This document shows, piece after piece, positions 33 through 16,275 of a DNA stretch of 64,000 nucleotides. The notes under the pieces are model-generated. The model was not told the origin of the DNA. It saw only the letters and a program-made list of their open reading frames with translations, and made no database searches. The translations under genes and the position numbers were made by a program. Position 1 is the stretch's first letter, and each line of letters starts with the position of its first letter. The DNA comes from Candidatus Omnitrophota bacterium. Its GTDB lineage: Bacteria; Omnitrophota; Gorgyraeia; Zapsychrales; Fredricksoniimonadaceae. The stretch is from contig JAYTXU010000048.1 of NCBI GenBank assembly GCA_043742785.1, positions 8,951 to 72,950 of the forward strand. Reading direction: 5' to 3'.

Positions 33-3000
33 ATGAAGCATCGATGGATTATCATTAGCCTATCCGTTATCTTTTTCCTAACCGCTTTAACGTTTTGGGC
101 CAATCGTATCTACTTCCCCACTGTTATTCACAAAATTGCTATTGAAGAAGCTCAAAAATTCCTTAAACGTAAGATCGAAATTGAATCCCTGCGTTTTAAC
201 TGGCTTAAAGGTGTTGTCCTTAATAACGTTAAAGTCTACCAGAAGGAATCTTCAACCGAAGTTCTTGTTGAAGCAGAAAAAGTCTCCATAGGATTGATCT
301 TTATTCCTGGATTTAAACAACACACACTCATTCTCCCCTTTATTAATATTCAATCTCCCTCATTGCATTTAATCCATCAAGCCAATGGGCAATGGAATTT
401 CTCTGATTTATTATCGCCTGCTGCAACAGCCAATGAAAAACCTTCTCCCCTATCAATCTCTGTAGGAAGCATCCACCTCCTCAATGGGAAAATACGTTTA
501 GACGATGTTCAGCCTCAAGGTCTATGGACAGAATTCTTCGATCAAATTAATCTCAAAGTAGGACTTTCATATAAGGGGATCAGCTTTGACGGATCTCTTA
601 CTCTTCCCAAGAAAGATGGCATGCTTTCTGTTAACGGCTCTTATCAACCTCTTAATCAATCTTTAAATTCAGCTCTTATTATTAAAAATATCAAACCCTT
701 GGATTACCTTAAGATTATTCCAGTCCAGCTACCCTTTACTTTAACCAGCGGAACAATCAATGACTTAAACGCTCATTTAGACTATTCCAAAGAAAAAATT
801 AATGTTCAAGGAGCTTGGTCTATTAAAAATATTGATATGAACTTAGCTGATCAAAACATCAAAGCTGATATAGATGCCTTAGGCGCTGATATCTCTTTAG
901 AAAAAGGTAAAACCTTAATTAAAGGAGATTTTTCTTTCGCAAAAACTAAAATTACTACTCCTACCTATTCTATAACCGGAAGTTTTAAAAGCAGCATCGA
1001 TCATTTTGTTATGAATTCTCCAGAAGATATTACAATCAAAGCTTCCCTCCAGACTGACAATATAACTGTCCAATTACCCCATAATCAATCCTTCCAAGGA
1101 CAAATTAACGCCCTGATATCCATGGGGCATTTACAAAAAGACTCCGCTTCTTTAGAAGGAAATTTATCTATCAACCAGACTTTTCTTTCTTTAGGCGACA
1201 AACAAAACATTACCGGTCATTTAACCTTAAATAACATCAAACTTATTAAAGATAAAAACATATATTCCACAACCACCGACTTAAGATTCAACAATTTTAA
1301 TTTACAACTACCGGGACAAATGTTCAAAGGCGAACTCAACGCTTCTAATTTAACAATCCATATGGATGCTAAGAATAATATAAAAATTCAAAGCCCACTT
1401 GAACTGACTAATCTAGGAATCACAACCGATAATGCTACTATTAAAGGTGCCTTACTTTTCAAGAGCATCAAAGCTATGTATGATCAAAACAATCAAACAA
1501 TCGATGCGCAAACTCAAGGAACTTTAGATAAATTCACCATGGATTTAGGCAAACAAGGGACTCTTCATACAAATGCACATTTTGATATGCATATTCTACT
1601 CCCTATCAAAAATCCTTCTGGATTAGACTATAAAGGATCTCTGGCTATTGAAGAAGCTCGTTTTGAAGGACTCCCCTTAGGTACTATTAAAGATATTAAT
1701 TTAACTGCTGACTTATCAACCGATACTGCGAACATACAAAACCTATCTTTCAATCTCTTAGATACTCCTATCAAAGCCAAAGGGAGTATCACTAACTTTC
1801 TAAAGCCTCAGTTAAATATGCAAGCTGAATCTAGTCGATTTGATTTAAACAAAATTAAAGACATCGCCCCTGATCTACTTAAAGCCTATGGGTTGACTAT
1901 CGATGGAGAAAGCTCTTTTAATCTGAAATTTGAAGGTCCCTTAAACGATCCTTTAAACGCTAAAATCAATGCTTTAGCAACTCTTAAAGACGTAAATATC
2001 CAAAGCTCAACACTTAAACAAAGCTTCAATAACATCTCCGCAATACTCAAAGCTGATGGAGATTCCATTTCTTGGCATGATTTCACTGCCACAATTATGG
2101 ACAAACCTTTTGTCTCTACTGGTGATTTAACAAATTTTAAGAATCCTAAAATCAACGCTTCACTTTCTTGGCAGGGAATAGAAATTAAGACGAAAATCTA
2201 TAAAGATGATAACCTGATCAACATCCAAGATTTGGACGGACATTACCAATCCGCCACTTTTTCAGCAAATGGAACAGTTGATCTCTCTAGCAAACTTCCC
2301 CAATTAGACCTAAAAAGTATTCTTAAGATTAAATTAGAAGATTTAACAACAATTCTTCCAAACTTAAAAAAAGATTTAGACCCTCTTAAACTATCCGGTT
2401 TAGTAACCGCGAATACCACCCTGACTGGAAGCGCTTCTGATTGGAAGAATTGGACTTTAAAAACAAGTGCTCTAAGTGAATTAATCACTGTTTATGGGTT
2501 TAAATTTAATAATTTCAATGGTGCCATCAATCAAGAAGAAGGAAAAATAAAAAAGTTCAATATTACCAGCAAGTTTTACGATGGAGATTTAAACATCCTC
2601 ACAACAGCCGACATACGTGACACCTCTATTCCTTTTAATACTGCTCTCCATATTGAAAATGTCAATTTAGAAAAACTGATTAAAGATACCGGGGCTAAAG
2701 ACGAGGACTTACGAGGATTTATTGCACTGACAACTGTTGTCAATGGAACCATTAAAGATATCTTAAATATTAAAGGGAATGGATCACTCAACATCTCACA
2801 GGGATATTTAATGAAAAAAGAATTTTCTTCTCTTTTTGTGATTTCTGAATTAAGCAATCTGATTTTTACAGATGCAACGGCAAATTTTGAAATTGCCAAT
2901 CAAGAAGTATCAACCGATAATTTTATGCTCAAGAGTGAAGGTGCTATTTTAAACGGAAAAGGAACGATTGGATTTAACCACAAGATCCAGTTTGAACTTC

Positions 3001-3224
3001 ATCCTGAATTTAACACAGAAGCAATTTCTCAATCAGATTCATTCAAAAAGGGTCCTTCAGCATTAATCGCCTCGGTTGCTGGGAAATACTTAACTATCAA
3101 TATTAGCGGAACCTTGGATAAACCGCAAATTCACACCATCAAACACCCGACGGAATTTATAAAGAAAACAGGGGAGATAATTACAGAAAATGTGGGTCAA
3201 ATCTTACAGGGAATTTTCCAATAA
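33..3224 (+). CDS. AsmA/TamB-like envelope biogenesis protein
   Basis: 1063-aa ORF. A single N-terminal membrane anchor (WIIISLSVIFFLTALTFWA) is followed by a long Asn/Ser/Thr/Lys-rich beta-strand-like region, the architecture of AsmA/DUF748-type proteins. Pattern recognition only. Confidence 0.55.
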   Translation: MKHRWIIISLSVIFFLTALTFWANRIYFPTVIHKIAIEEAQKFLKRKIEIESLRFNWLKGVVLNNVKVYQKESSTEVLVEAEKVSIGLIFIPGFKQHTLILPFINIQSPSLHLIHQANGQWNFSDLLSPAATANEKPSPLSISVGSIHLLNGKIRLDDVQPQGLWTEFFDQINLKVGLSYKGISFDGSLTLPKKDGMLSVNGSYQPLNQSLNSALIIKNIKPLDYLKIIPVQLPFTLTSGTINDLNAHLDYSKEKINVQGAWSIKNIDMNLADQNIKADIDALGADISLEKGKTLIKGDFSFAKTKITTPTYSITGSFKSSIDHFVMNSPEDITIKASLQTDNITVQLPHNQSFQGQINALISMGHLQKDSASLEGNLSINQTFLSLGDKQNITGHLTLNNIKLIKDKNIYSTTTDLRFNNFNLQLPGQMFKGELNASNLTIHMDAKNNIKIQSPLELTNLGITTDNATIKGALLFKSIKAMYDQNNQTIDAQTQGTLDKFTMDLGKQGTLHTNAHFDMHILLPIKNPSGLDYKGSLAIEEARFEGLPLGTIKDINLTADLSTDTANIQNLSFNLLDTPIKAKGSITNFLKPQLNMQAESSRFDLNKIKDIAPDLLKAYGLTIDGESSFNLKFEGPLNDPLNAKINALATLKDVNIQSSTLKQSFNNISAILKADGDSISWHDFTATIMDKPFVSTGDLTNFKNPKINASLSWQGIEIKTKIYKDDNLINIQDLDGHYQSATFSANGTVDLSSKLPQLDLKSILKIKLEDLTTILPNLKKDLDPLKLSGLVTANTTLTGSASDWKNWTLKTSALSELITVYGFKFNNFNGAINQEEGKIKKFNITSKFYDGDLNILTTADIRDTSIPFNTALHIENVNLEKLIKDTGAKDEDLRGFIALTTVVNGTIKDILNIKGNGSLNISQGYLMKKEFSSLFVISELSNLIFTDATANFEIANQEVSTDNFMLKSEGAILNGKGTIGFNHKIQFELHPEFNTEAISQSDSFKKGPSALIASVAGKYLTINISGTLDKPQIHTIKHPTEFIKKTGEIITENVGQILQGIFQ

Positions 3225-5043: not shown

Positions 5044-5125
5044 GTCATCCCCCGAATGTTTTAACCTGCCGGCAGGCAGGTCGGGGATCCAGATTCTGGA
5101 TTCCCGCTTTCGCGGGAATGACAAT
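5044..5125. repeat. GC-rich MITE/REP-like element, copy 1 (82 bp), intergenic between queE and queF
   Basis: Near-identical to 7694..7778 in the same orientation. It contains the palindrome CCTGCCGGCAGG and the hairpin ATTCCCGC-TTTC-GCGGGAAT. The ends are imperfect inverted repeats (GTCATCCCCCG / CGCGGGAATGAC). Confidence 0.8.
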
Positions 5126-6901: not shown

Positions 6902-7798
6902 TTAAAAACCCACTCTTTTAACATTTATAACATTGGCCCCTAAAAACCGCACCGCGCGATATTTAAATATCTCCGGCTCATCGCTAACTAAATATAAATG
7001 ATGTGGTGCTTGTTTTTGTTGACGAAGCAACCCTTGTGAAGCCAAGATTTCTTTAACTTCCATAGCTACTTCAAAAGCTGAATCAATAAGAGTAACCTTC
7101 TTACCCATCACCCTAGCGATAGTATTCTTTAAAAGAGGATAATGGGTGCATCCTAGAATTAGAGTATCCACTCCTTCTTTTTTAAAATCACTTAAATACT
7201 CTTTAGCTACGCGATAGGTGATGTCATGATCAAACCATCCCTCTTCGACCAATGGCACAAACAACGGACAAGGCTGGCTTAACACCGATACCTTAGGTTC
7301 AAAACTTTGTAGCCGCTTAGCGTACTTACCGCTTTTAACAGTTGACTGAGTGGCAATAATACCAACTTTTTTTGACTTTGTCGATAGTGCTGCTTTACGA
7401 GCTCCAGGATCGATCACTCCTAAAATTGAAACAGGACATTCCTTTTGTAATACATCCAAAGCTAAACTTGAAGCCGTATTACAAGCCACAACGATCATCT
7501 TGACCTTTTTCTTAAGAAGAATATCAACAATCTCACGAGAATAACGAATAATTGTTTCCCTTGATTTAGTACCATAGGGAACACGTGCAGTATCTCCAAA
7601 ATAGACAATATTTTCCTTAGGTAAGACTTTAAAAAGCTCTTTGACAACGGTTAAACCACCTAAACCAGAATCAAAAACACCAATAGGCCTGCTGTCACCC
7701 TCGAATGTTTTAACCTGCCTGCCGGCAGGCAGGTCGGAGGGTCCATTTTTAGATTCCCGCTTTCGCGGGAATGACAATTTTTTAGGATGTTGAGGCAT
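6902..7798 (-). CDS. murI: glutamate racemase
   Basis: VFDSGLGGLTV, ACNTAS and GCTHYP motifs. The first ~35 codons are translated from repeat copy 2, so the true start is uncertain. Confidence 0.88.
   Translation of the reverse strand: MPQHPKKLSFPRKRESKNGPSDLPAGRQVKTFEGDSRPIGVFDSGLGGLTVVKELFKVLPKENIVYFGDTARVPYGTKSRETIIRYSREIVDILLKKKVKMIVVACNTASSLALDVLQKECPVSILGVIDPGARKAALSTKSKKVGIIATQSTVKSGKYAKRLQSFEPKVSVLSQPCPLFVPLVEEGWFDHDITYRVAKEYLSDFKKEGVDTLILGCTHYPLLKNTIARVMGKKVTLIDSAFEVAMEVKEILASQGLLRQQKQAPHHLYLVSDEPEIFKYRAVRFLGANVINVKRVGF
7694..7778. repeat. GC-rich MITE/REP-like element, copy 2 (85 bp), inside the 5' end of the murI ORF
   Basis: Same family and orientation as 5044..5125. It carries a perfect 22-bp palindrome ACCTGCCTGCCGGCAGGCAGGT and the hairpin ATTCCCGC-TTTC-GCGGGAAT. 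Confidence 0.8.
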
Positions 7799-8820: not shown

Positions 8821-9570
8821 CTATTTTTGTTCTTCGCTAGGAACCTGTACTGTTGTATGCATGGTTAAAAAAATAATAGTCTCTGTCTTCTGCATTAGCT
8901 TGCCTTGCTTACGAAACACCAAGCCTACTAAAGGCAAATCTCCTAAGAGAGGAATTTTACGCGTTTTCTTAATTTCTTCTTCATGCATAAGCCCACCTAT
9001 AACAATCGTCGAATTATCCTTTAAATCAACCTCTGTTTGATTCTTGAGAGTCACAATCATATTAGGTTGAGTGTTGTTTTTTAAAATACCACCTACAATA
9101 GGATCAATTTTTAATTTTTCCATCCCAGCAGGAGAATTAAACCACATCAAATTCAAATTAATAGAAGGCAAGCTATTAGGATCAAAAGAAATATCAAAAA
9201 CCTTTGATTCCTCCTTATTTAAAATAAAAATAGAGAAATCTTTTTGACTAAACCGTCCTACAGTATCAAGAGCATCTAACAAAACCGCATAATCTTCACT
9301 GGAAACCTCCCCCACGCTTAAATTAAACTTCTTATCCTCCCATGACGGATCGCTGTCTTTTCTTAATTGCAGACTATGAAAATCTGAAACAATAGCCTCC
9401 CAATCAACCCCTTGACGATGTTCATCGTTAAGAACAATTTGCACAACCTTGGCTTCCAATCTTACCTTAGATGCTGTTGGTGAAATTGAAGGCACTGGCG
9501 AATCTTCTGCCCAAAGACAAGGGCTTACACAAAAAACTAAAGTGAAGATTAAAATAAAACGCATGACCAT
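8821..9570 (-). CDS. minimal secretin-domain protein (secretin C-domain only)
   Basis: Start taken at MVMRFILIFTLVFCVSPCLWA (signal peptide). The domain opens with VRLEAKVVQIVLNDEHRQGVDW. The C-terminal KIPLLGDLPLVGLVFRKQGKLMQKTETIIFLT matches the conserved secretin tail, and no N0/N1 domains are present. Confidence 0.6.
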   Translation of the reverse strand: MVMRFILIFTLVFCVSPCLWAEDSPVPSISPTASKVRLEAKVVQIVLNDEHRQGVDWEAIVSDFHSLQLRKDSDPSWEDKKFNLSVGEVSSEDYAVLLDALDTVGRFSQKDFSIFILNKEESKVFDISFDPNSLPSINLNLMWFNSPAGMEKLKIDPIVGGILKNNTQPNMIVTLKNQTEVDLKDNSTIVIGGLMHEEEIKKTRKIPLLGDLPLVGLVFRKQGKLMQKTETIIFLTMHTTVQVPSEEQK

Positions 9571-9577
9571 TAGAATA

Positions 9578-10411
9578 TTAAACTTTCTGCCATTTCGCAA
9601 TGAAAAATCCTTCCATTCGTCCATCAGGTATTATCCGCATTTGTGAGCAAAGCCTTAAACCCTCTGCCTTACGTGCCAACCATTCTAGAACTTCTTCATT
9701 TTCTTCATAAGCAAAGGTACATGTACTATACACTAAAATCCCGCCAGGCCTAATTAAACGACTGGCATTGAGTAAAAGTCCTTTTTGTTTATGCGCCATT
9801 TCTTTAATTTTACGCAACGACCAATAGGCATACGTTTTCGGATTGTCCTCTTTAAATCTTCCCTCCGAAGAGCAGGGAGCATCAACAAGCACCCTATCAA
9901 AAAGCTCATCTCTAACTTTATAAATTCGACCATCGATCATGGTCAATTTGGCCACAGCACCCGTTAAACTCAAGACCGCTTTAAGCCTAAAAAATCTTGA
10001 ACGGACAGGTTCATTAGCCACTAAAAGTCCTTGATTGTTCATATGCATCGCAATTTGGCTGGTCTTACTTCCTGGAGCCGCACATAAATCTAATATTCGC
10101 TCCCCTGGCTTAGGATCTAATTCTACAACTGAGCGCATACTTTCTAACCCTTGAATATAAAGAAGTCCTTCCACCACTAAAGATGACTCTTTAACCGCCC
10201 CAGCTTGTGCTGCAGGAACACTAAAAGCATAAGGATACCAATCCACCTTCTCAAAGGAAATTCCTAAATTTCTTAACTGCCTATGAATATCTTCCACCGA
10301 TGCCTTAAGCGTATTCACACGAAAATAAGTGTATTGAGATGGCTTGCCAAAAAACTCTAAAGCCTCTGGCGACAAAGTTTTCTGTATTCGATTTAAAAAT
10401 ATGGGATCCAT
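9578..10411 (-). CDS. RsmB/RsmF-family RNA cytosine-C5 methyltransferase
   Basis: 277 aa with the SAM motif DLCAAPGSKT and the catalytic motifs DAPCSSEG and YSTCT. Confidence 0.85.
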   Translation of the reverse strand: MDPIFLNRIQKTLSPEALEFFGKPSQYTYFRVNTLKASVEDIHRQLRNLGISFEKVDWYPYAFSVPAAQAGAVKESSLVVEGLLYIQGLESMRSVVELDPKPGERILDLCAAPGSKTSQIAMHMNNQGLLVANEPVRSRFFRLKAVLSLTGAVAKLTMIDGRIYKVRDELFDRVLVDAPCSSEGRFKEDNPKTYAYWSLRKIKEMAHKQKGLLLNASRLIRPGGILVYSTCTFAYEENEEVLEWLARKAEGLRLCSQMRIIPDGRMEGFFIAKWQKV

Positions 10412-10501: not shown

Positions 10502-13500
10502 ATGCTTAAAAATAAGGGTCAATCTATTTTTGAATACACCGCTATGGCGATGCTTATCATTGTAGGCGTCATTGTCATGGGACCCTATATTACACGTTCT
10601 TTAGGTGCTCACTTTAAACTTTGGCAAGAATCTGTAGATGATTCTGTCAATGACCGTATGCAAAGCGTTCCAATCAACATCACCCCGGACTGCGTCTGCT
10701 CGGGAGATATTCAAGGTGGCTGCGGCGGCCATTTTCAACGTGAAAATAAAACCTGTGCCCCTAATGAACGTTATCACTCTACTAAATGCAGTCCCCCTGC
10801 TTGCGGATTTGGAGAAGACTTTACTGAAGGATGTACCCCAGATGTTAGTTGTTGTGAAATCTATAATGCCTGTTCTCTCACCACTCCTTTAGCTTCCTGT
10901 TGTGGAACAACACCTTTTCCTGTTCCTGCAGACCCAACAAGAACCAACCCTGATGCTCAAGGATTTCCTCCCATCCCGGGTGCTGATCCTAATTCTCCAG
11001 CAAGTTCTTGTTATTCTGGAGAAGAACTTCTTTACAATCAATGTGATACAACAATAGTCCGTTGTAAACCTAATGCTCAATGCAAGGCCATGTGTACTGG
11101 CAATCTTCCTCATAACCAAAGCGGCGATCTGACAGCAAACCTTTGTCCAGGAGCTGATCAAGGTTTAACTAAAGATACGCCCATTACACTTATAGGAGGG
11201 TGTTCTGTTCCTATATCTACTTGTCCTAAAATAACAGCGCCATCTATTAAAATTCCACAACTATTATCTAGCGGACGGGCCAATCTAACAAAAGTTGCGC
11301 CTTTTTTACTCCCCTTATGCCCAGGAGGTGATAATGGAATTTATCCCACTCAGGCTAATGCTGATCAATTTTGTAAACAGTACTTTAATGCTCCTGATGC
11401 CCAAGCTACAACTTGGCATGGATTTAATTATGATTCTTGTGGAGATAACCCACAAAAAAAAGGAAATGGATCCAGCTGGACATGCACTGTCAATGGTTGC
11501 ACACAAGTAAATAGAGTGCAGTCTATAAAGGATATAACCTGTACCTACTCCAAGTGTTCAACACCCTATACCCTCGTTACTCCCCTCTGTTCAGGGAGTG
11601 AAACAGTTTCCTGTAACAGTGGAGACTCTTTATTTGGCTCTTTAGACACAGGTACAGGGAACAATCATACCATTGCTGTTGATGGCAATACCTGTACAGC
11701 CAGTGAAGGAAATAATAATAATGGTGTCTGTGGTTGTCAAATCACCTGCTCATCTCCTTTTTTAATCACAAAGAAATCTGACTGGAAGGCTCATACCGCT
11801 GTCGGATATGCTTCATCTTATATTTATCTTTCCACACTACCTCCGCAACAATATACCGTTGCAGGACAAGCATTCTCTGTATATGATCCAATCAAGTCAT
11901 ACAGAAATGGTGGAGCCACAGCCATAACAAACCTTAATGCCAACTATCAAACCATTATCCCTTCACTACCTGAAACGCTCATAAAAAACCAAAGTGGGTC
12001 ACGCATAATATTCAATTATGCACAATTAGCTAGTGAATCTCTCGCAACACAACAAGAATTTATTAATAACCTAAAAACCGGTAGTCATGTTATTGCAAAC
12101 CGCTATCTCTGCACTACCAACACCGTAGATGCCCCCGATTGTCATGTCAATAATCGTGGAGCAGATATGCCTGCGTTTGAAATAGACGGACTTTTATATG
12201 ATACCATTCATGATAGCGATACTTATGTCCAATTCGCTGAAGCAGAAACTATAGGGCAATATACCTTATGGGTTGACGGTTGCACAACCTTTAGCACACC
12301 TGGATCAACCAACTGGACAGTTCCTGCTGGAGTAACAAATGCTACTGTTGAAGTTTGGGGCGCTGGCGGCGGTGGTGGTGGTTGGTACGGAGACATTACT
12401 AGCGGTGGTGGTGGTGGTGGTGGTGGTGGTTATTCAAAAGGAACTCTTTCTCTAACCGGCGGAACCACCTACAACATTGTAATAGGCGCTGGAGGACATG
12501 GAGGAGATGCTGTTGCGCCAAGTGATGGTGGAACCAGTTCTTTTAGCCTATCATCCCCCCTACTTCAGGCTAGCGGTGGTCACCATGGTGATTATCAAAG
12601 CTTTGCTATTGGTGATTTTCTTGGAGGTGCTGGTGGTGCAGCTAGTGTAGATAATGCTGTTAGCAATCCTTTTTCCTTATCTGGCTCTCGAGGCAATGAT
12701 GGGATATACGCATGGGGAAATGGCGGTGATGGTGGTAAGGCTGGAGGTTCTGATGGAGGTATTGGCGGAACAGGTGGGCCAGGAGGTGATTTTAATAATG
12801 TTGCTCATGGCGCATACGGTTCTGGTAGTGATGGAACAGCTCCCGGTGGCGGTGGTGGTGGCGGTGGCGGTGATGCAGACATAGGTGGATTAGGTGGCTT
12901 TGGCGCCAATGGAATGGTTAAAATTTGTCCTATTGAAACTCCTGCTCCCTGTACAAACACCTGTCCAGACTATGCTACTGACCCCACAGCGACTAAATGC
13001 GTAGCCAAATGTAACGATGGATATGAAGTAAAAACTGACCTTTCTGGTATTACTTATTGTGCTCCAAGTACTCCAAATGGATGCAATGCTACACCGATAA
13101 CAGCACTAGTGTATCTTTGCGATGACGATTATTACAGTACAGCGTCAGCTTTAGCATCCTTCGGTCATCAATGCATAAGGCCCTCTGACAACGGCGGTAC
13201 TGTGTGCACTTTTGAAGGTAGTCTTTTAGGGAAAGGTGATACAGGAGATACCTGTCCTAATCTTCATAATTTCCCTGTTCCTGTCCAAATAAATGATATC
13301 GTAACCTTAATCAATGGTCTTCAAAATGGTAAGGGAACAGTCATTTTCCGTACCATCAATACCAATATATCTTGTGATATAGCAGCAGGTGAAATTTCTA
13401 TTTCTCTTTCAAAAGGTGTTTTTTCAGGTACTACTGATAGATATAACAGCGCAACACACTCGTTTATAGCCCCATCTAATGGATATCTTATTAATTGTGC

Positions 13501-13990
13501 CTATGATGATAATATCGCAACGACCGTCACTCGCCCAGCTAACTGTAATCCTTCCATCCAATGCAATTACTCTGGAACTTATTATGGTACGATCTACTCT
13601 TCTACTTGTGTTAATAATACACTATCAATAACGTGCTTAAATAATATGGTTAAAGGTTTTTGTGTGGGCTCTTCAGGGACCAGAGGTACCGTTGCAACAG
13701 AAGACTGCACAGGATGTAATTGGTCAGGCAATCGTTACTTTAATACCGATAGGGATACTAATAATTTTACTATGAATTGTTCAAACAATGCAGTCCAAGG
13801 CTTTTGGGCTGGAGATCATCATTCAGATCCACCCGTCACAGGTTGTAACTGGTCAGGTGATCAAGTATTCAGCGATTGTGGTGATGGTAATGATATCTAC
13901 ATAACCTGTACAAACGGAACTATTACGAAAATGAATATGTCTGGGACTGGAAGAAATGGTTGTCAATGGGGTCCTGCTTATTGTGCATGA
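10502..13990 (+). CDS. giant Cys-rich surface protein with Flp/TadE-like prepilin leader, polyglycine (Gly_rich) domain and C-terminal CN[WY]SG repeats
   Basis: 1162-aa ORF. The N-terminus MLKNKG|QSIFEYTAMAMLIIVGVIVMG has Gly at -1 and Glu-Tyr at +5/+6. It has dozens of Cys and the segment WTVPAGVTNATVEVWGAGGGGGG. Confidence 0.75.
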   Translation: MLKNKGQSIFEYTAMAMLIIVGVIVMGPYITRSLGAHFKLWQESVDDSVNDRMQSVPINITPDCVCSGDIQGGCGGHFQRENKTCAPNERYHSTKCSPPACGFGEDFTEGCTPDVSCCEIYNACSLTTPLASCCGTTPFPVPADPTRTNPDAQGFPPIPGADPNSPASSCYSGEELLYNQCDTTIVRCKPNAQCKAMCTGNLPHNQSGDLTANLCPGADQGLTKDTPITLIGGCSVPISTCPKITAPSIKIPQLLSSGRANLTKVAPFLLPLCPGGDNGIYPTQANADQFCKQYFNAPDAQATTWHGFNYDSCGDNPQKKGNGSSWTCTVNGCTQVNRVQSIKDITCTYSKCSTPYTLVTPLCSGSETVSCNSGDSLFGSLDTGTGNNHTIAVDGNTCTASEGNNNNGVCGCQITCSSPFLITKKSDWKAHTAVGYASSYIYLSTLPPQQYTVAGQAFSVYDPIKSYRNGGATAITNLNANYQTIIPSLPETLIKNQSGSRIIFNYAQLASESLATQQEFINNLKTGSHVIANRYLCTTNTVDAPDCHVNNRGADMPAFEIDGLLYDTIHDSDTYVQFAEAETIGQYTLWVDGCTTFSTPGSTNWTVPAGVTNATVEVWGAGGGGGGWYGDITSGGGGGGGGGYSKGTLSLTGGTTYNIVIGAGGHGGDAVAPSDGGTSSFSLSSPLLQASGGHHGDYQSFAIGDFLGGAGGAASVDNAVSNPFSLSGSRGNDGIYAWGNGGDGGKAGGSDGGIGGTGGPGGDFNNVAHGAYGSGSDGTAPGGGGGGGGGDADIGGLGGFGANGMVKICPIETPAPCTNTCPDYATDPTATKCVAKCNDGYEVKTDLSGITYCAPSTPNGCNATPITALVYLCDDDYYSTASALASFGHQCIRPSDNGGTVCTFEGSLLGKGDTGDTCPNLHNFPVPVQINDIVTLINGLQNGKGTVIFRTINTNISCDIAAGEISISLSKGVFSGTTDRYNSATHSFIAPSNGYLINCAYDDNIATTVTRPANCNPSIQCNYSGTYYGTIYSSTCVNNTLSITCLNNMVKGFCVGSSGTRGTVATEDCTGCNWSGNRYFNTDRDTNNFTMNCSNNAVQGFWAGDHHSDPPVTGCNWSGDQVFSDCGDGNDIYITCTNGTITKMNMSGTGRNGCQWGPAYCA
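12404..12430 (+). repeat. perfect (GGT)9 microsatellite inside the giant gene (encodes Gly9)
   Basis: Nine consecutive in-frame GGT codons read directly from the sequence. Confidence 0.95.
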
Positions 13991-14000
13991 TAATTAGGAT

Positions 14001-14021
14001 AATTAGGGACAGACACTAATT
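14001..14021. repeat. left terminal inverted repeat, self-folding (AATTAG-9 nt-CTAATT)
   Basis: Exact reverse complement of 14818..14838. It overlaps the last codons of the transposase ORF. Confidence 0.9.
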
Positions 14022-14695
14022 CTAATTTCCTTTCGTGGTCGGCCTCTTTTTTTATCTTTTAAACTGTAGCCTACTTCTTGTTCTAAATCAGCTATGAAAT
14101 TTTCTGTACCGATGGGGGCACATTTCAAAACACTTCTTCTAAAGTTTTTTGTCATTTGTGGATCATCTTTTTCTAAATAGTCTTTCCAATTTTTTTCGTA
14201 AGCTAGATGTAAGATTGTATCGAAATCGGCTGTTTTTATAATGGGCTTTTTCTCCAATCCTAGATGCTCTCTGGCACTAGACCAAATATATTTACTCAAA
14301 TCGTTCACCATCCCCGCTCGCAGAGGATTCCTTTCGACATAACGGATGGCTCTTAAAAGATGAGTTTCATCCAGCACGTTAGAATAAAACCGGCCTTGCC
14401 AAAGATGACCAGTCTTTGATTGGGTACGGTTTTTATAAAGACTATATTGCATATGGACTATTTTGAATAATTGCGCTAATCCAAAAGAGGTTGTAGGGAT
14501 AACAATAAAATGAACGTGATTATCCATGAGGCAATAGGCTAGGATTCTTACATCATATTTTTGGGAGTACTCCAGCATCCAATAAGAATATTTTTTGAAA
14601 TCACGGGAATCATCAAAGACTTTCTGACGATAATTACCACGTTGAGTAACATGATGTGGAAGACCGGGAATTACTAATCGTGGCTGTCTAGGCAT
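14003..14695 (-). CDS. REP-associated tyrosine transposase (RAYT) / IS200-like Y1 HUH transposase
   Basis: 230 aa with GLPHHVTQRGN, the HUH motif DNHVHFIV, and a catalytic Tyr region AIRYVERNPLRAGM. Confidence 0.85.
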   Translation of the reverse strand: MPRQPRLVIPGLPHHVTQRGNYRQKVFDDSRDFKKYSYWMLEYSQKYDVRILAYCLMDNHVHFIVIPTTSFGLAQLFKIVHMQYSLYKNRTQSKTGHLWQGRFYSNVLDETHLLRAIRYVERNPLRAGMVNDLSKYIWSSAREHLGLEKKPIIKTADFDTILHLAYEKNWKDYLEKDDPQMTKNFRRSVLKCAPIGTENFIADLEQEVGYSLKDKKRGRPRKEIRISVCP

Positions 14696-14698
14696 ATG

Positions 14699-14722
14699 AT
14701 CCCCTTTGAGTTTTTAGGGGAT
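14699..14722 (-). promoter_or_regulatory. stem-loop sequestering the transposase ribosome-binding site
   Basis: ATCCCCT-10 nt-AGGGGAT is a perfect 7-bp stem. On the mRNA strand the 3' arm contains the AAGGGGA Shine-Dalgarno, 3-6 nt from the ATG at 14695. Confidence 0.5.
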
Positions 14723-14817
14723 TTTACAGATGAATGCCATTGAGGAAATGGCCTTAGTTTTTATACTATCTTACTACCTAATGCTTGTCAAATTGTGTTG
14801 GAATTTGGGATGAGAGA

Positions 14818-14838
14818 AATTAGTGTCTGTCCCTAATT
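14818..14838. repeat. right terminal inverted repeat of the RAYT element
   Basis: Exact reverse complement of 14001..14021, ending 6 nt before the permease stop codon (14845-14847). Confidence 0.9.
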
Positions 14839-14844
14839 TAACTA

Positions 14845-16275
14845 TTATCTATTCAATCGGCTATGATGACGGCTATACAAGAAATAAATCACTAAACCAA
14901 TAGCCAGCCATACAATCAACCGCAACCACGTCTCGCTATTTAGCGAACACATCATCGCAAAGCACACAATAATTCCTAGGATTGGAAATATAGGTACGCA
15001 TGGACAACGAAAAGGCCGCGGGGCATTGGGTTGGGTAAAACGCAGAACAATCACTCCCCCGCAAACAATAATGAAAGCCATGAGGGTGCCGATCGAAGTC
15101 ATATGGCCTAATTGGGAAATGGGTAAAAGGCCGGCACAAAGACCAACAATAATCATAAAGATCAAATTGGATTTCCAAGGCGTCTTAAACTTAGGATGAA
15201 TATCAGAAAAAATCTTCGGCAATAACCCGTCCCGTGACATCGAATAAAAAACTCTTGATTGTCCTAGAAGCATCACCAAAATCACCGACGTAAATCCCAT
15301 AATAATCCCAAGCTTAATCATCATTTGAAGCCAGGGATACGGAGTCATATTAATTGCGGTGATGACAGGTGTTATCCCAGCGCCCATCTGCTTATAATTA
15401 ACCATCCCCGTTAAGACATAAGAAAAGGCTAAATAAAGAATCGTGCAGATAACAAGTGAACCTAAAATCCCTATGGGAATATCCCGAGAAGGCTTCTTAG
15501 ATTCTTGAGCCGCTGTCGACACCGAATCAAATCCGATGTAGGCAAAAAAGATGATCCCTGCCGCTCTCATGATCCCGCTTATACCAAATTCCCCAAATTT
15601 TCCGGTGTTAGGTGGAATAAACGGATGATGATTTTCTGGTTTAATATAATGCACGCCAACAGCAATAAACGTTATAACAACCGCCATTTTAATGACCACA
15701 ATGACCGCATTAACATTAGCCGATTCTTTAATACCCAGTATTAAAAGGATTGAAATACCAACAATAATGCCGACCGCGGGAATATTAATAATACCTGGCG
15801 TCGGATCAAAAGGACATGCCGTAAATTGAGACGGCAAGTTGATATTAAAGACCTTCAGGAATTCAGTGACATATCCTGACCACGCAACAGCAACGACAGC
15901 GGAAGCAACGGCATATTCTAAAATAAGGTCCCACCCAATAATCCAAGCAATAAACTCCCCCATCGTTGCGTAGGCATAGGTATAGGCGCTTCCAGCCACC
16001 GGAATCATGGAAGCTAATTCACTGTAACACATGCCGGCAAAGGCGCAGCCAATCCCAGCTACAACAAACGAAAGCACAACCGCAGGGCCGGCATTTTGAG
16101 CAGCCGCAATACCCGTTAGAGAAAAAAGACCTGCTCCAATAATAGCTCCAATCCCTAAGGCAATCAGACTTTTAGGACCTAACGTCTTCTTTAAAGTATG
16201 CTCTCCATCTTCAGATTCATTGACAATTCGATTAATGGGCTTACACACGAATAGATTCATCGGGTAACCTTTCAT
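14845..16275 (-). CDS. APC-family amino acid permease (cationic amino acid transporter-like)
   Basis: 476 aa, polytopic with about 12-14 hydrophobic helices, and a typical APC N-terminal segment LGPKSLIALGIGAIIGAGLF. Confidence 0.9.
   Translation of the reverse strand: MKGYPMNLFVCKPINRIVNESEDGEHTLKKTLGPKSLIALGIGAIIGAGLFSLTGIAAAQNAGPAVVLSFVVAGIGCAFAGMCYSELASMIPVAGSAYTYAYATMGEFIAWIIGWDLILEYAVASAVVAVAWSGYVTEFLKVFNINLPSQFTACPFDPTPGIINIPAVGIIVGISILLILGIKESANVNAVIVVIKMAVVITFIAVGVHYIKPENHHPFIPPNTGKFGEFGISGIMRAAGIIFFAYIGFDSVSTAAQESKKPSRDIPIGILGSLVICTILYLAFSYVLTGMVNYKQMGAGITPVITAINMTPYPWLQMMIKLGIIMGFTSVILVMLLGQSRVFYSMSRDGLLPKIFSDIHPKFKTPWKSNLIFMIIVGLCAGLLPISQLGHMTSIGTLMAFIIVCGGVIVLRFTQPNAPRPFRCPCVPIFPILGIIVCFAMMCSLNSETWLRLIVWLAIGLVIYFLYSRHHSRLNR

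Follow-up and report, generated by a model that had tools for sequence, protein, structure and literature searches.

Organization of the element and its genomic site

The DNA analysed here, called the window, is a 64-kb stretch from an Omnitrophota bacterium. It contains an element of 838 nt (14001-14838) that is composed of one HUH/tyrosine transposase gene framed by identical inverted hairpin repeats (Table 1). The element is located between two convergent genes. The gene for a 1162-aa protein ends at 13990, and the element starts 10 nt beyond its stop codon; on the other side, the element ends 6 nt short of the stop codon of a permease gene (14845-14847). These ORF coordinates agree with the placement and spacings given in a preliminary description of this DNA. 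From the point of view of annotation, this is an ordinary small insertion element between two genes. Neither the window nor the element gives a match in Rfam (E <= 1).

Table 1. Positions in the window of the element's features.
Feature	Position	Strand	Details
Gap between the convergent genes	13991..14844	.	854 nt = 838 nt element + 10 nt + 6 nt flanks
Extended left-end hairpin and outer-edge stutter	13988..14027	.	-5.4 kcal/mol, z -2.8
Left terminal inverted repeat, gene 3' side	14001..14021	.	AATTAG 14001-14006, loop GGACAGACA 14007-14015, CTAATT 14016-14021
Probable TIRYT gene (Y1 HUH nuclease/transposase, 230 aa)	14003..14695	-	ORF, Pfam, alignment, model
mRNA leader Shine-Dalgarno hairpin, 7 bp	14699..14722	-	Arms 14699-14705 and 14716-14722, 7 perfect pairs
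Leader hairpin 1	14736..14752	-	GCCAUU - UCCUC - AAUGGC
Internal sigma-70-like promoter	14763..14791	-	TTGACA - 17 nt - TAGTAT, 10/12; pattern match only
Right terminal inverted repeat, gene 5' side	14817..14839	.	AAATTAG - TGTCTGTCC - CTAATTT

The transposase

The ORF encodes a protein with the three motifs, HHVTQRGN, NHVHFIV and RYVERNP, by which it had initially been recognized as a HUH/Y1 transposase, and it matches the Pfam family Y1_Tnp (PF01797; E 7.5e-14, 52.3 bits versus a gathering score of 23). NHVH occupies residues 59-62 (H60-V-H62), the WQ pair is W99-Q100, and YVERNP, which contains the catalytic Tyr119, extends from 119 to 124. A conserved GRP (AT-hook-like) tail is present at 218-220. 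The HUH, WQ, Tyr-x3-NP and GRP motifs are invariant across 31 homologues (H60, H62, Y119, N123-P124).

A search of the PDB with the single sequence gives no match, and the first match of a profile search is 4ER8, the E. coli TnpA_REP. The AF2 model of the protein (pLDDT 87) also finds its best structural match in 4er8_A (E 7e-8, TMt 0.75), with IS608 TnpA behind. The NCBIfam RAYT model (NF047646) scores 65.7 bits and the transpos_IS200 model (NF033573) 23 bits, both under the curated cut-offs, which are 80 and 55, respectively. Comparison with RAYT and IS200 proteins had been proposed as a check on the classification, and it places the transposase on the RAYT side rather than on the IS200 side, by its Y-x3-NP motif, by 4ER8 as the best structure and by the difference between both NCBIfam scores.

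These data bear directly on whether the element could be an ordinary IS of the IS200 group (IS200/IS605, with TnpA only), moving by single-strand peel-and-paste with subterminal hairpins. The element shares with IS200/IS608 the Y1 HUH catalytic core, which the PF01797 match reflects, as well as hairpin ends, a small size (about 0.8 kb, one gene) and the lack of a target-site duplication; a stem-loop over the ribosome binding site, present here, reportedly covers that of IS200 tnpA too. However, the Y motif of TnpA_IS200 (subclass 1.1) is Y-x3-Q (Y[IV]ENQ; PMC6006769, Table 1) and that of the window protein is Y-x3-NP (RYVERNP). Moreover, the protein is larger by about 80 aa and its C-terminal region is conserved, it falls well short of the IS200 model cut-off, and its closest structure is TnpA_REP. 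The ends of the element are perfect 21-nt inverted repeats, unlike the subterminal hairpins without terminal repeats of IS200/IS605. An IS200-group identity is, for these reasons, very improbable.

The published class that best accommodates the protein is subclass 2.1, defined by NHVH, W[EQ], Y[IV]xxNP and a length of about 238 aa (Quentin et al. 2018; PMC6006769, Table 1). NHVH, WQ and YVERNP are all present in the window protein, which has 230 aa and a C-terminal extension. For subclass 2.1, an HTH-like C-terminal domain has been reported. The C-terminal region is helical in the AF2 model (residues 158-208), but neither the window protein nor 30 homologues give a Pfam hit (E <= 1) to such a domain (Bac_DnaA_C, HTH_23, HTH_28).

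Terminal repeats and hairpins

The left repeat is AATTAGGGACAGACACTAATT (14001-14021), and its exact reverse complement (21/21 nt) is found at 14818-14838. Allowing up to 3 mismatches, the 64-kb window has no further match, and none is expected in shuffles. That the repeats are perfect and without another copy in the window had been noticed at first. It had also been claimed that the left repeat encodes the end of the protein, and the stop codon TAA does fall within it.

An origin of these repeats by coincidence, or as two transcription terminators around the remnant of a decayed transposase, has a negligible probability. Terminator hairpins are expected between converging genes, and the orthologous gap of one relative (L147) contains a terminator-like hairpin, but the number of 21/21 repeats expected by chance is 0, the ORF is intact with all its catalytic residues, dozens of unrelated loci show the same repeat-gene-repeat layout, and the hairpins have neither G+C-rich stems nor T tracts.

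Each repeat can fold on itself as predicted, AATTAG pairing with CTAATT around the 9-nt loop GGACAGACA; at the right end the stem reaches 7 bp. Single repeats fold weakly as ssDNA (-2.6 to -5.4 kcal/mol, z -1.9 to -3.5). In the left repeat, the family core GGGACAGACAC occupies 14006-14016. Both repeats carry in the hairpin loop the family-wide GGGAC(A)G, the core of the published motif GGGGWSAS, with which the window repeat agrees at 7/8 positions (AGGGACAG).

The hairpin stems covary across the family. In 27 stem variants, the arms of the same hairpin pair over 5.05 bp versus 4.11 +/- 0.15 bp for permuted arms. Likewise, the similarity between ends is 0.81 within one element versus 0.65 between ends of different elements. 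The tetranucleotide comparable with the 5' GT[AG]G foot that REPs have at the base of the hairpin is located here inside the stem, beside the loop; it is TTAG in the window and GTAG in the 70%-identical relatives; in the wider family it is ATAG or AAGG.

At the left end, the repeat core is adjoined by two tandem units, TGATAATTA (13988-13996) and GGATAATTA (13997-14005), which correspond to the near-tandem duplication first described as TAATTAGGA/TAATTAGGG. They allow an outer helix between AATTAG (13992-13997) and CTAATT (14022-14027), in which a GAT bulge remains. A similar duplication is present at 25 of the 153 hairpins of the family, versus 3.3 +/- 1.7 at random positions.

Leader of the transposase gene

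The preliminary description proposed that a perfect 7-bp stem sequesters the ribosome binding site. This stem is indeed present in the window copy: its 3' arm on the mRNA is the Shine-Dalgarno AGGGGA, its 5' arm is a conserved UCCCC motif, and the leader folds with a z of -2.7. It is strong only in this copy. The relatives conserve UCCCC(C) but pair just 3-4 bp with the Shine-Dalgarno, and RNAalifold on six leaders gives no support to the helix as a conserved structure.

In leader hairpin 1, compensatory changes affect 4/6 pairs of the stem across 6 sequences, and the loop, UCCYC, is conserved among the relatives with long leaders. A terminator function was considered for this hairpin and discarded, since it is terminator-like on the antisense strand of the window copy only and not in the relatives. 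Farther upstream, the elements of 70% identity have TTGACA..TATAAT at the place corresponding to the promoter-like pattern of the window. By analogy with IS200, transcription from the putative internal promoter through a structured leader, whose C-rich motif pairs with the Shine-Dalgarno, would probably result in low expression.

Relatives and dispersed hairpins

The same architecture recurs elsewhere. Among 80 metagenome relatives (38-71% identity), 64 have the gene between inverted repeats that measure 11 nt or more, and the core (A/G)GGGACAG... is present in the repeat at 49/66 family loci, a set formed by these 64 relatives, the window and one further locus (L004). Plasmids of P. aeruginosa and R. 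rubrum carry full-length homologues (32-35%) with perfect repeats, AAAGGGGACAGA... and AAAAGGGGTCAGACCCC. The published motif GGGGWSAS is matched at 8/8 positions (GGGGACAG or GGGGTCAG) in many relatives and in these plasmid homologues (motif from PMC3733652). Viral contigs contain one hairpin match plus distant (31-44%) partial relatives only; therefore, there is no sign of carriage by phages.

The hairpin also occurs apart from the gene. It had been considered that the 21-mer might exist nowhere else, but at least 10 further assemblies contain exact copies, among them other Omnitrophota, a Legionella isolate and MAGs labelled as other phyla. In a search of genome contigs, 60 matching loci were obtained, about 35 of which are "+ then -" doublets, and a homologous gene lies nearby at only one. 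Most of the dispersed hairpins form head-to-head doublets, which have the same polarity as the two ends of the element and fold to -23 to -27 kcal/mol. Dispersed pairs of inverted hairpins that form one long fold, as in REPINs, are found, for instance, in JACQJO01, CAVYLG01 and MHGF01; none was seen within the 64-kb window. Assemblies contain from about 4 to 26 hairpins, these figures being lower bounds. To judge from their sequences, the doublets seem to be derivatives that lack the gene, similar to REPINs or MITEs. In Legionella drozanskii, a 230-aa ORF adjoins a solo hairpin; its length and geometry suggested a homologue, but it has no similarity to the transposase.

Mobility of the whole unit

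The comparison with empty sites that had been suggested at the outset shows the site to be empty in relatives. The transposase gene is missing from the orthologous loci of relatives whose permease is 84-93% identical, where the gaps measure 16 nt (permease 93% identical; known from gene coordinates only), 20 nt (87%) and 87 nt (84%). A search for a truncated converging gene on the contig with the 93% identical permease, for which the last 149 aa of the 1162-aa neighbour served as query, gave no match. Since these loci are without the gene, it is not a fixed, syntenic, domesticated copy, which was the outcome that the preliminary description had regarded as contrary to its proposal.

Homology shared among the window and two related loci (L002 and L004) begins and ends at the hairpins. 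In two pairs of closely related copies, L068/L069 (98.8%) and L110/L120 (95%), the flanks beyond the repeats are unrelated. As far as sequence comparison can indicate, the whole unit, gene plus repeats, is mobile, because orthologous loci exist without it and near-identical copies lie in unrelated flanks.

This mobility argues against a classical REPtron, in which a domesticated RAYT gene would spread the hairpins as REPs and would itself no longer move. The RAYT-like motif and fold of the protein, the REPIN-like doublets dispersed in other genomes and the single copy in the 64-kb window would all suit such a gene, as would one relative (L008) in which several doublets flank the gene, as in the E. 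coli REPtron. However, vertical inheritance as a single copy at a fixed locus, by which canonical RAYTs are recognized, is not what is found here: loci with 84-93% identical neighbours lack the gene, and units of gene and repeats that are nearly identical have boundaries at the repeat edges. In addition, the score of the protein is below the RAYT cut-off, and of the groups that were kept as RAYTs, group 1 has, with group 6, the most IS-like statistics (PMC5581495). An immobile REPtron is thus unlikely, although less so than an IS200-group element.

Relationship to known systems

The element is quite probably a TIRtron, that is, one TIRYT gene (subclass 2.1, group 1 of Bertels) between inverted hairpins, an assignment made by motifs, length and repeats. 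The first proposal, a compact HUH element of RAYT/IS200-like type whose terminal repeats fold on themselves, is supported, and TIRYT/TIRtron is the more exact name for it. Because the family has already been described, the element is a clean example of a little-studied family and not a new system.

TIRtrons and TIRYTs were defined by GGGGWSAS inverted repeats (Di Nocera, De Gregorio & Rocco 2013, BMC Genomics 14:522; PMC3733652). They consist of a RAYT-like gene between terminal inverted repeats that are not canonical GTAG REPs. Self-complementarity is seen in some of the repeats, the one downstream may extend over the 3' end of the gene, and dimers or clusters of repeats lie at other sites of the genome. 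All these features, together with the GGGGWSAS motif, are shared by the element and its relatives. The differences from those systems are the host, since the Omnitrophota were an unsampled lineage in 2013, and the repeat itself, here a very short hairpin with an AT stem and a loop of 9 nt. The present data add the outer-edge stutter and the movement of the unit as a whole, neither of them found in the passages of that article consulted.

The low genomic copy number and the patchy taxonomic distribution of subclass 2.1/group 1 are also seen in this family. In contrast, REP-like sequences are reported to be absent from subclass 2.1 (PMC6006769), whereas here hairpins flank the gene and are dispersed as REPIN-like doublets.

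With the REPtron and RAYT-REPIN systems (E. coli TnpA_REP, PDB 4ER8; Pseudomonas REPINs, Bertels & Rainey 2011), the element shares the closest solved fold, inverted hairpins at both sides of the gene, doublets that fold into one long hairpin and copies that are mostly extragenic. It differs from them in the RAYT score below the curated cut-off, in the apparent absence of a conserved 5' GT[AG]G foot outside the stem, in the number of hairpins per assembly, which is not in the hundreds, and in a gene that appears to move together with its repeats.

Possible mechanism and significance

By analogy with IS608 TnpA and E. coli TnpA_REP, the transposase would bind the hairpin on single-stranded DNA and cut the adjacent DNA by forming a 5'-phosphotyrosine bond at Tyr119, the metal being held by His60 and His62. 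Strand rejoining would then excise and insert the unit without target duplication, and the doublets might also be processed by the enzyme in trans. On any one strand, however, the two ends of the element show complementary loops, which does not fit directly with a single-strand mechanism strictly like that of IS608.

Group 1/subclass 2.1 is the largest class of RAYT-like HUH proteins and has no experimentally defined substrate or activity; two surveys differ on its linkage to repeats. The locus and its relatives, for which the evidence of recent movement of the whole unit is clear, constitute a compact and testable system: a protein of 230 aa, a 21-nt hairpin whose loop is conserved and whose stem covaries, and natural doublets without the gene. 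Such a system could settle how HUH elements with inverted ends are processed, and it may serve for single-stranded-DNA tools.

A broader reading is speculative and rather doubtful. Group 1 RAYTs, usually listed as domesticated and without REPs, could be active autonomous hairpin-gene-hairpin elements, in Omnitrophota and beyond, that spawn REPIN-like doublets and cross phyla, and the outer-arm duplication, which ends in ...TAG|GGGAC, could be a footprint of strand transfer. If so, the duplication would point to integration with the outer arm supplied or copied at the target, unlike in IS608. A similar duplication is present at 25 of the 153 hairpins of the family, versus 3.3 +/- 1.7 at random positions.

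Classification of the transposase

The gene between the terminal repeats of the 838-bp element encodes a 230-aa protein that the preliminary description took for an HUH/Y1 transposase. Pfam assigns it to Y1_Tnp (E 7.5e-14), and among 31 aligned homologues (48-70% identity) the HUH histidines H60 and H62 and the tyrosine Y119 are invariant, as are W99-Q100, N123-P124 and G218; V61, R219 and P220 are nearly invariant. Databases hold more than 7000 related proteins, and those with names come from Omnitrophota. The NCBIfam RAYT model scores higher (65.7 bits, cut-off 80) than the IS200 model (23 bits, cut-off 55), both scores being under their cut-offs. The profile of the 31-homologue alignment finds Escherichia coli TnpA_REP (4ER8, E 1.2e-5) before an archaeal IS200 transposase, and the best match of the AlphaFold model (pLDDT 87, pTM 0.85) is 4er8_A (E 7e-8, TM 0.75 on the target), followed by the TnpA proteins of IS608 and ISDra2.

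The protein shares the motif set NHVH / WQ / Y[IV]xxNP, and a fitting length, with subclass 2.1 as given in Table 1 of Quentin et al. 2018 (PMC6006769), which is the same as group 1 in Bertels et al. 2017 (PMC5581495). However, the HTH-like C-terminal domain reported for this subclass (PMC6006769) is undetected by Pfam in the window protein. The element is real and had been read correctly; its precise name is TIRtron or TIRYT, a RAYT-like tyrosine transposase gene with terminal inverted repeats (subclass 2.1, group 1 RAYT). It is a further member of this known kind in a poorly studied phylum and not a new type of system. Together with its relatives, it provides extra evidence of whole-unit mobility, of REPIN-like doublets and of a tandem duplication at the outer edge of the repeats.

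Features of the element, its surroundings and related loci (window coordinates unless a record is named; L-numbers are loci from other genomes or metagenomes)
Feature	Record	Position	Strand	Details
Left repeat AATTAGGGACAGACACTAATT	window	14001-14021		exact reverse complement at 14818-14838
Transposase ORF	window	14003-14695	minus	intact, 230 aa, between the repeats; HHVTQRGN, NHVHFIV, RYVERNP
Left-flank duplication	window	13988-14005		near-tandem
Second helix at left repeat	window	13992-13997 / 14022-14027		
SD stem	window	14699-14705 / 14716-14722		7 bp; AGGGGA, 4 nt before ATG, in 3' arm
Second UCCCC(C) motif	window	14716-14722	minus	invariant, 12-20 nt before SD
First leader hairpin	window	14736-14752	minus	UCCYC loop conserved; compensatory changes in 4 of 6 stem pairs, six relatives
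Promoter match	window	14791-14763		TTGACA-17-TAGTAT, inside the element
1162-aa gene	window	10502-13990	plus	Cys- and Gly-rich; Gly_rich_2 domain
Secretin gene	window	8821-9624		near the 1162-aa gene
Palindrome CCTGCCTGCCGGCAGGCAGG	window	5066-5081; 7713-7734		G+C-rich
Perfect 32-nt inverted repeat starting AAAGGGGACAGA	Pseudomonas aeruginosa plasmid NZ_CP116719.1 (L159)	1421-1452 / 2184-2215		34%-identical full-length homologue
Exact solo 21-mer	Legionella drozanskii LLAP-1, NZ_LNXY01000020.1 (L049)	7266-7286		junction of two converging ORFs; isolate genome, other phylum
Tandem array	Vulcanimicrobiota MAG JAIORV010000068.1 (L051)	2738-3169		173-nt unit, 2.5 copies, 94% matches
REPIN-like doublet	L018	87-133		
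REPIN-like doublet	L045 (JACQJO010000064.1)	1775-1827		

Terminal repeats

As initially described, the 21-bp terminal inverted repeats are perfect and each of them can fold on itself (AATTAG, the 9-nt loop GGACAGACA and CTAATT). The right hairpin has seven pairs (14817-14839), and the left one gains a second helix, which is the structural counterpart of the flank duplication already noticed. Computed folding gives weak hairpins as single-stranded DNA (-2.6 to -5.4 kcal/mol). The overlap with the coding end also holds, since the TAA stop lies inside the left repeat, and so does the placement between two convergent genes: the element starts 10 nt past the stop of a gene for a 1162-aa protein and ends 6 nt before that of an amino-acid permease gene. 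The window shows no target duplication at the element.

The terminal repeats are characteristic of the family and no local accident. Two 70%-identical homologues, in unrelated gene neighbourhoods, have the same hairpin on either side; its loop is identical and its stem compensated (AAGTAG...CTACTT versus AATTAG...CTAATT in the window), and homology among the three aligned elements starts and stops at the hairpins. Inverted repeats of at least 11 nt flank the gene in 64 of 80 further metagenome relatives (38-71% identity), the rest being mostly without flank sequence. The core (A/G)GGGACAG[CG/AC]xC, with AT-rich arms on either side, is present at 49 of the 66 family loci examined (these 64, the window and L004). 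The stems, of 27 different types, covary: the own arms of a repeat pair over 5.05 bp, versus 4.11 ± 0.15 bp when arms are swapped between repeats (300 permutations, maximum 4.56 bp). The resemblance of ends is 0.81 within one element versus 0.65 between different elements.

Plasmids of P. aeruginosa and Rhodospirillum rubrum carry full-length homologues (32-35% identity), annotated just as 'transposase', between perfect repeats of 32 nt (AAAGGGGACAGATTT...) and 19 nt (TTAAAAGGGGTCAGACCCC), respectively; three matching places lie in the P. aeruginosa record. Di Nocera et al. 2013 (PMC3733652) described RAYT-like genes with GGGGWSAS terminal inverted repeats, named TIRtrons or TIRYTs. Self-complementarity, overlap with the 3' end of the gene and occurrence in dimers were noted there for some of the repeats. 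The plasmid repeats match the GGGGWSAS given there, and the window repeat (AGGGACAG) does so in 7 of 8 positions.

Mobility of the whole unit

The gene and its repeats move as one unit. Two pairs of near-identical elements (gene identity 98.8% and 95%) stand in unrelated flanks, and in both pairs the limits of homology lie no more than a few bases from the outer repeat edges. On three contigs with permease orthologues (93, 87 and 84% identity) upstream synteny is kept and the converging gene follows after 16, 20 and 87 nt, respectively, with no transposase gene between the two at any of these loci. In the 84% relative, the first 250 residues encoded by the converging gene are shared with the 1162-aa protein (42% identity). 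Subtracting the 838-nt element from the 854-nt gap of the window leaves 16 nt, as in the closest relative (93%), an equality that is suggestive only, being known from gene coordinates alone.

The near-tandem duplication reported at the left flank is likewise recurrent. With a period of 7-16, at most one mismatch and an end 0-5 nt into the core, such duplications occur in the outer arm of 25 of 153 family hairpins (3.3 ± 1.7 at random positions of the same loci); an independent count gave 28 of 92 versus 9-10 ± 2.5. They are found at element ends as well as at doublets, for instance in the window, L121, L081, L069, L009, L114 and L108, and most commonly end exactly at ...TAG|GGGAC. They may be a trace of the strand-transfer junction or of slippage stimulated by the hairpin.

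Dispersed hairpins in other genomes

As previously noted, the window has no other copy of the 21-mer: the rest of its 64 kb holds no further match with up to three mismatches, and shuffles expect none. This says little, because densities elsewhere are about one site per 100 kb or more. The exact 21-mer is present in at least 10 other assemblies (less than one chance match expected over the whole collection), with solo copies in the L. drozanskii isolate, where no homologous transposase lies within 8 kb, and in MAGs labelled Desulfobacca, Acididesulfobacter and Vulcanimicrobiota.

When one genome per species was scanned with AKTAGGGACAGACACTAMT, 60 loci matched (uniform composition would give about 17 by chance). 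About 35 of them are doublets, a '+ then -' pair 25-45 nt apart, with the polarity of the two ends of a full element; these near-perfect palindromes fold to -23 to -27 kcal/mol. A homologous gene is within reach only at L008, where several doublets surround it. Single assemblies contain at least 4-13 sites (JACQJO01, CAVYLG01, CAYGEE01, MHGF01, CAIVOB01 and JADFXX01), and most hairpins (100 of 122) are situated outside long open frames. Although subclass 2.1 was reported to lack REPs (PMC6006769), REPIN-like doublets are found here for it.

Each unit of the L051 array has three copies of the hairpin core in mixed orientation. The L018 and L045 doublets lie within stop-free frames spanning the full 8-kb locus, one reading frame through the doublet being open; possibly they were inserted in frame into a giant gene.

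Proposed mechanism

Beside the established features (protein family and fold, conservation of the catalytic residues, covariation of the hairpin ends around a conserved loop, whole-unit movement and gene-less doublets elsewhere), a mechanism can be proposed from IS608 TnpA and TnpA_REP. The hairpin would be recognised on single-stranded DNA and the strand cleaved beside it through Tyr119, with the metal held by His60 and His62; strands would be exchanged without target duplication, and the protein could act in trans on doublets. Because the ends are inverted, a single strand reads GGGACAGACAC at one of them and the complement at the other. Processing might thus use a different strand for each end; alternatively, the ends might base-pair in single-stranded DNA, which has been proposed for REPINs.

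Expression signals and neighbouring genes

The promoter match sits where the 70% relatives have TTGACA...TATAAT, and the folding of the 73-nt leader beats all but 2 of 200 shuffles. The hairpin proposed to sequester the Shine-Dalgarno (SD) sequence is present in the window, but the helix between UCCCC(C) and the SD is long (7 bp) only there; it has 3-4 bp in relatives, and RNAalifold does not retain it. Translational masking is therefore plausible, the structure being seen in the window copy alone. Two UCCCC motifs are conserved in a long-leader subfamily (window, L067, L004, L071, L073 and L107), the opposite strand of the leader hairpin loop reads GGGGA, resembling the repeat core, and Rfam gives no match. 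In most other family members the upstream repeat lies 35-45 nt before the ATG with TTGACA directly after it (L092, L096, L108, L109, L115 and about 40 other metagenome loci), so that the leader would be very short or missing.

Orthologues of the 1162-aa protein have only the first ~250 residues in common and vary widely in length (L147: 715 aa). Its N-terminus (KGQSIFEY and a hydrophobic helix) presumably resembles a Flp-type pilin leader. The palindrome found at two places of the window may be a terminator or belong to a different small repeat.
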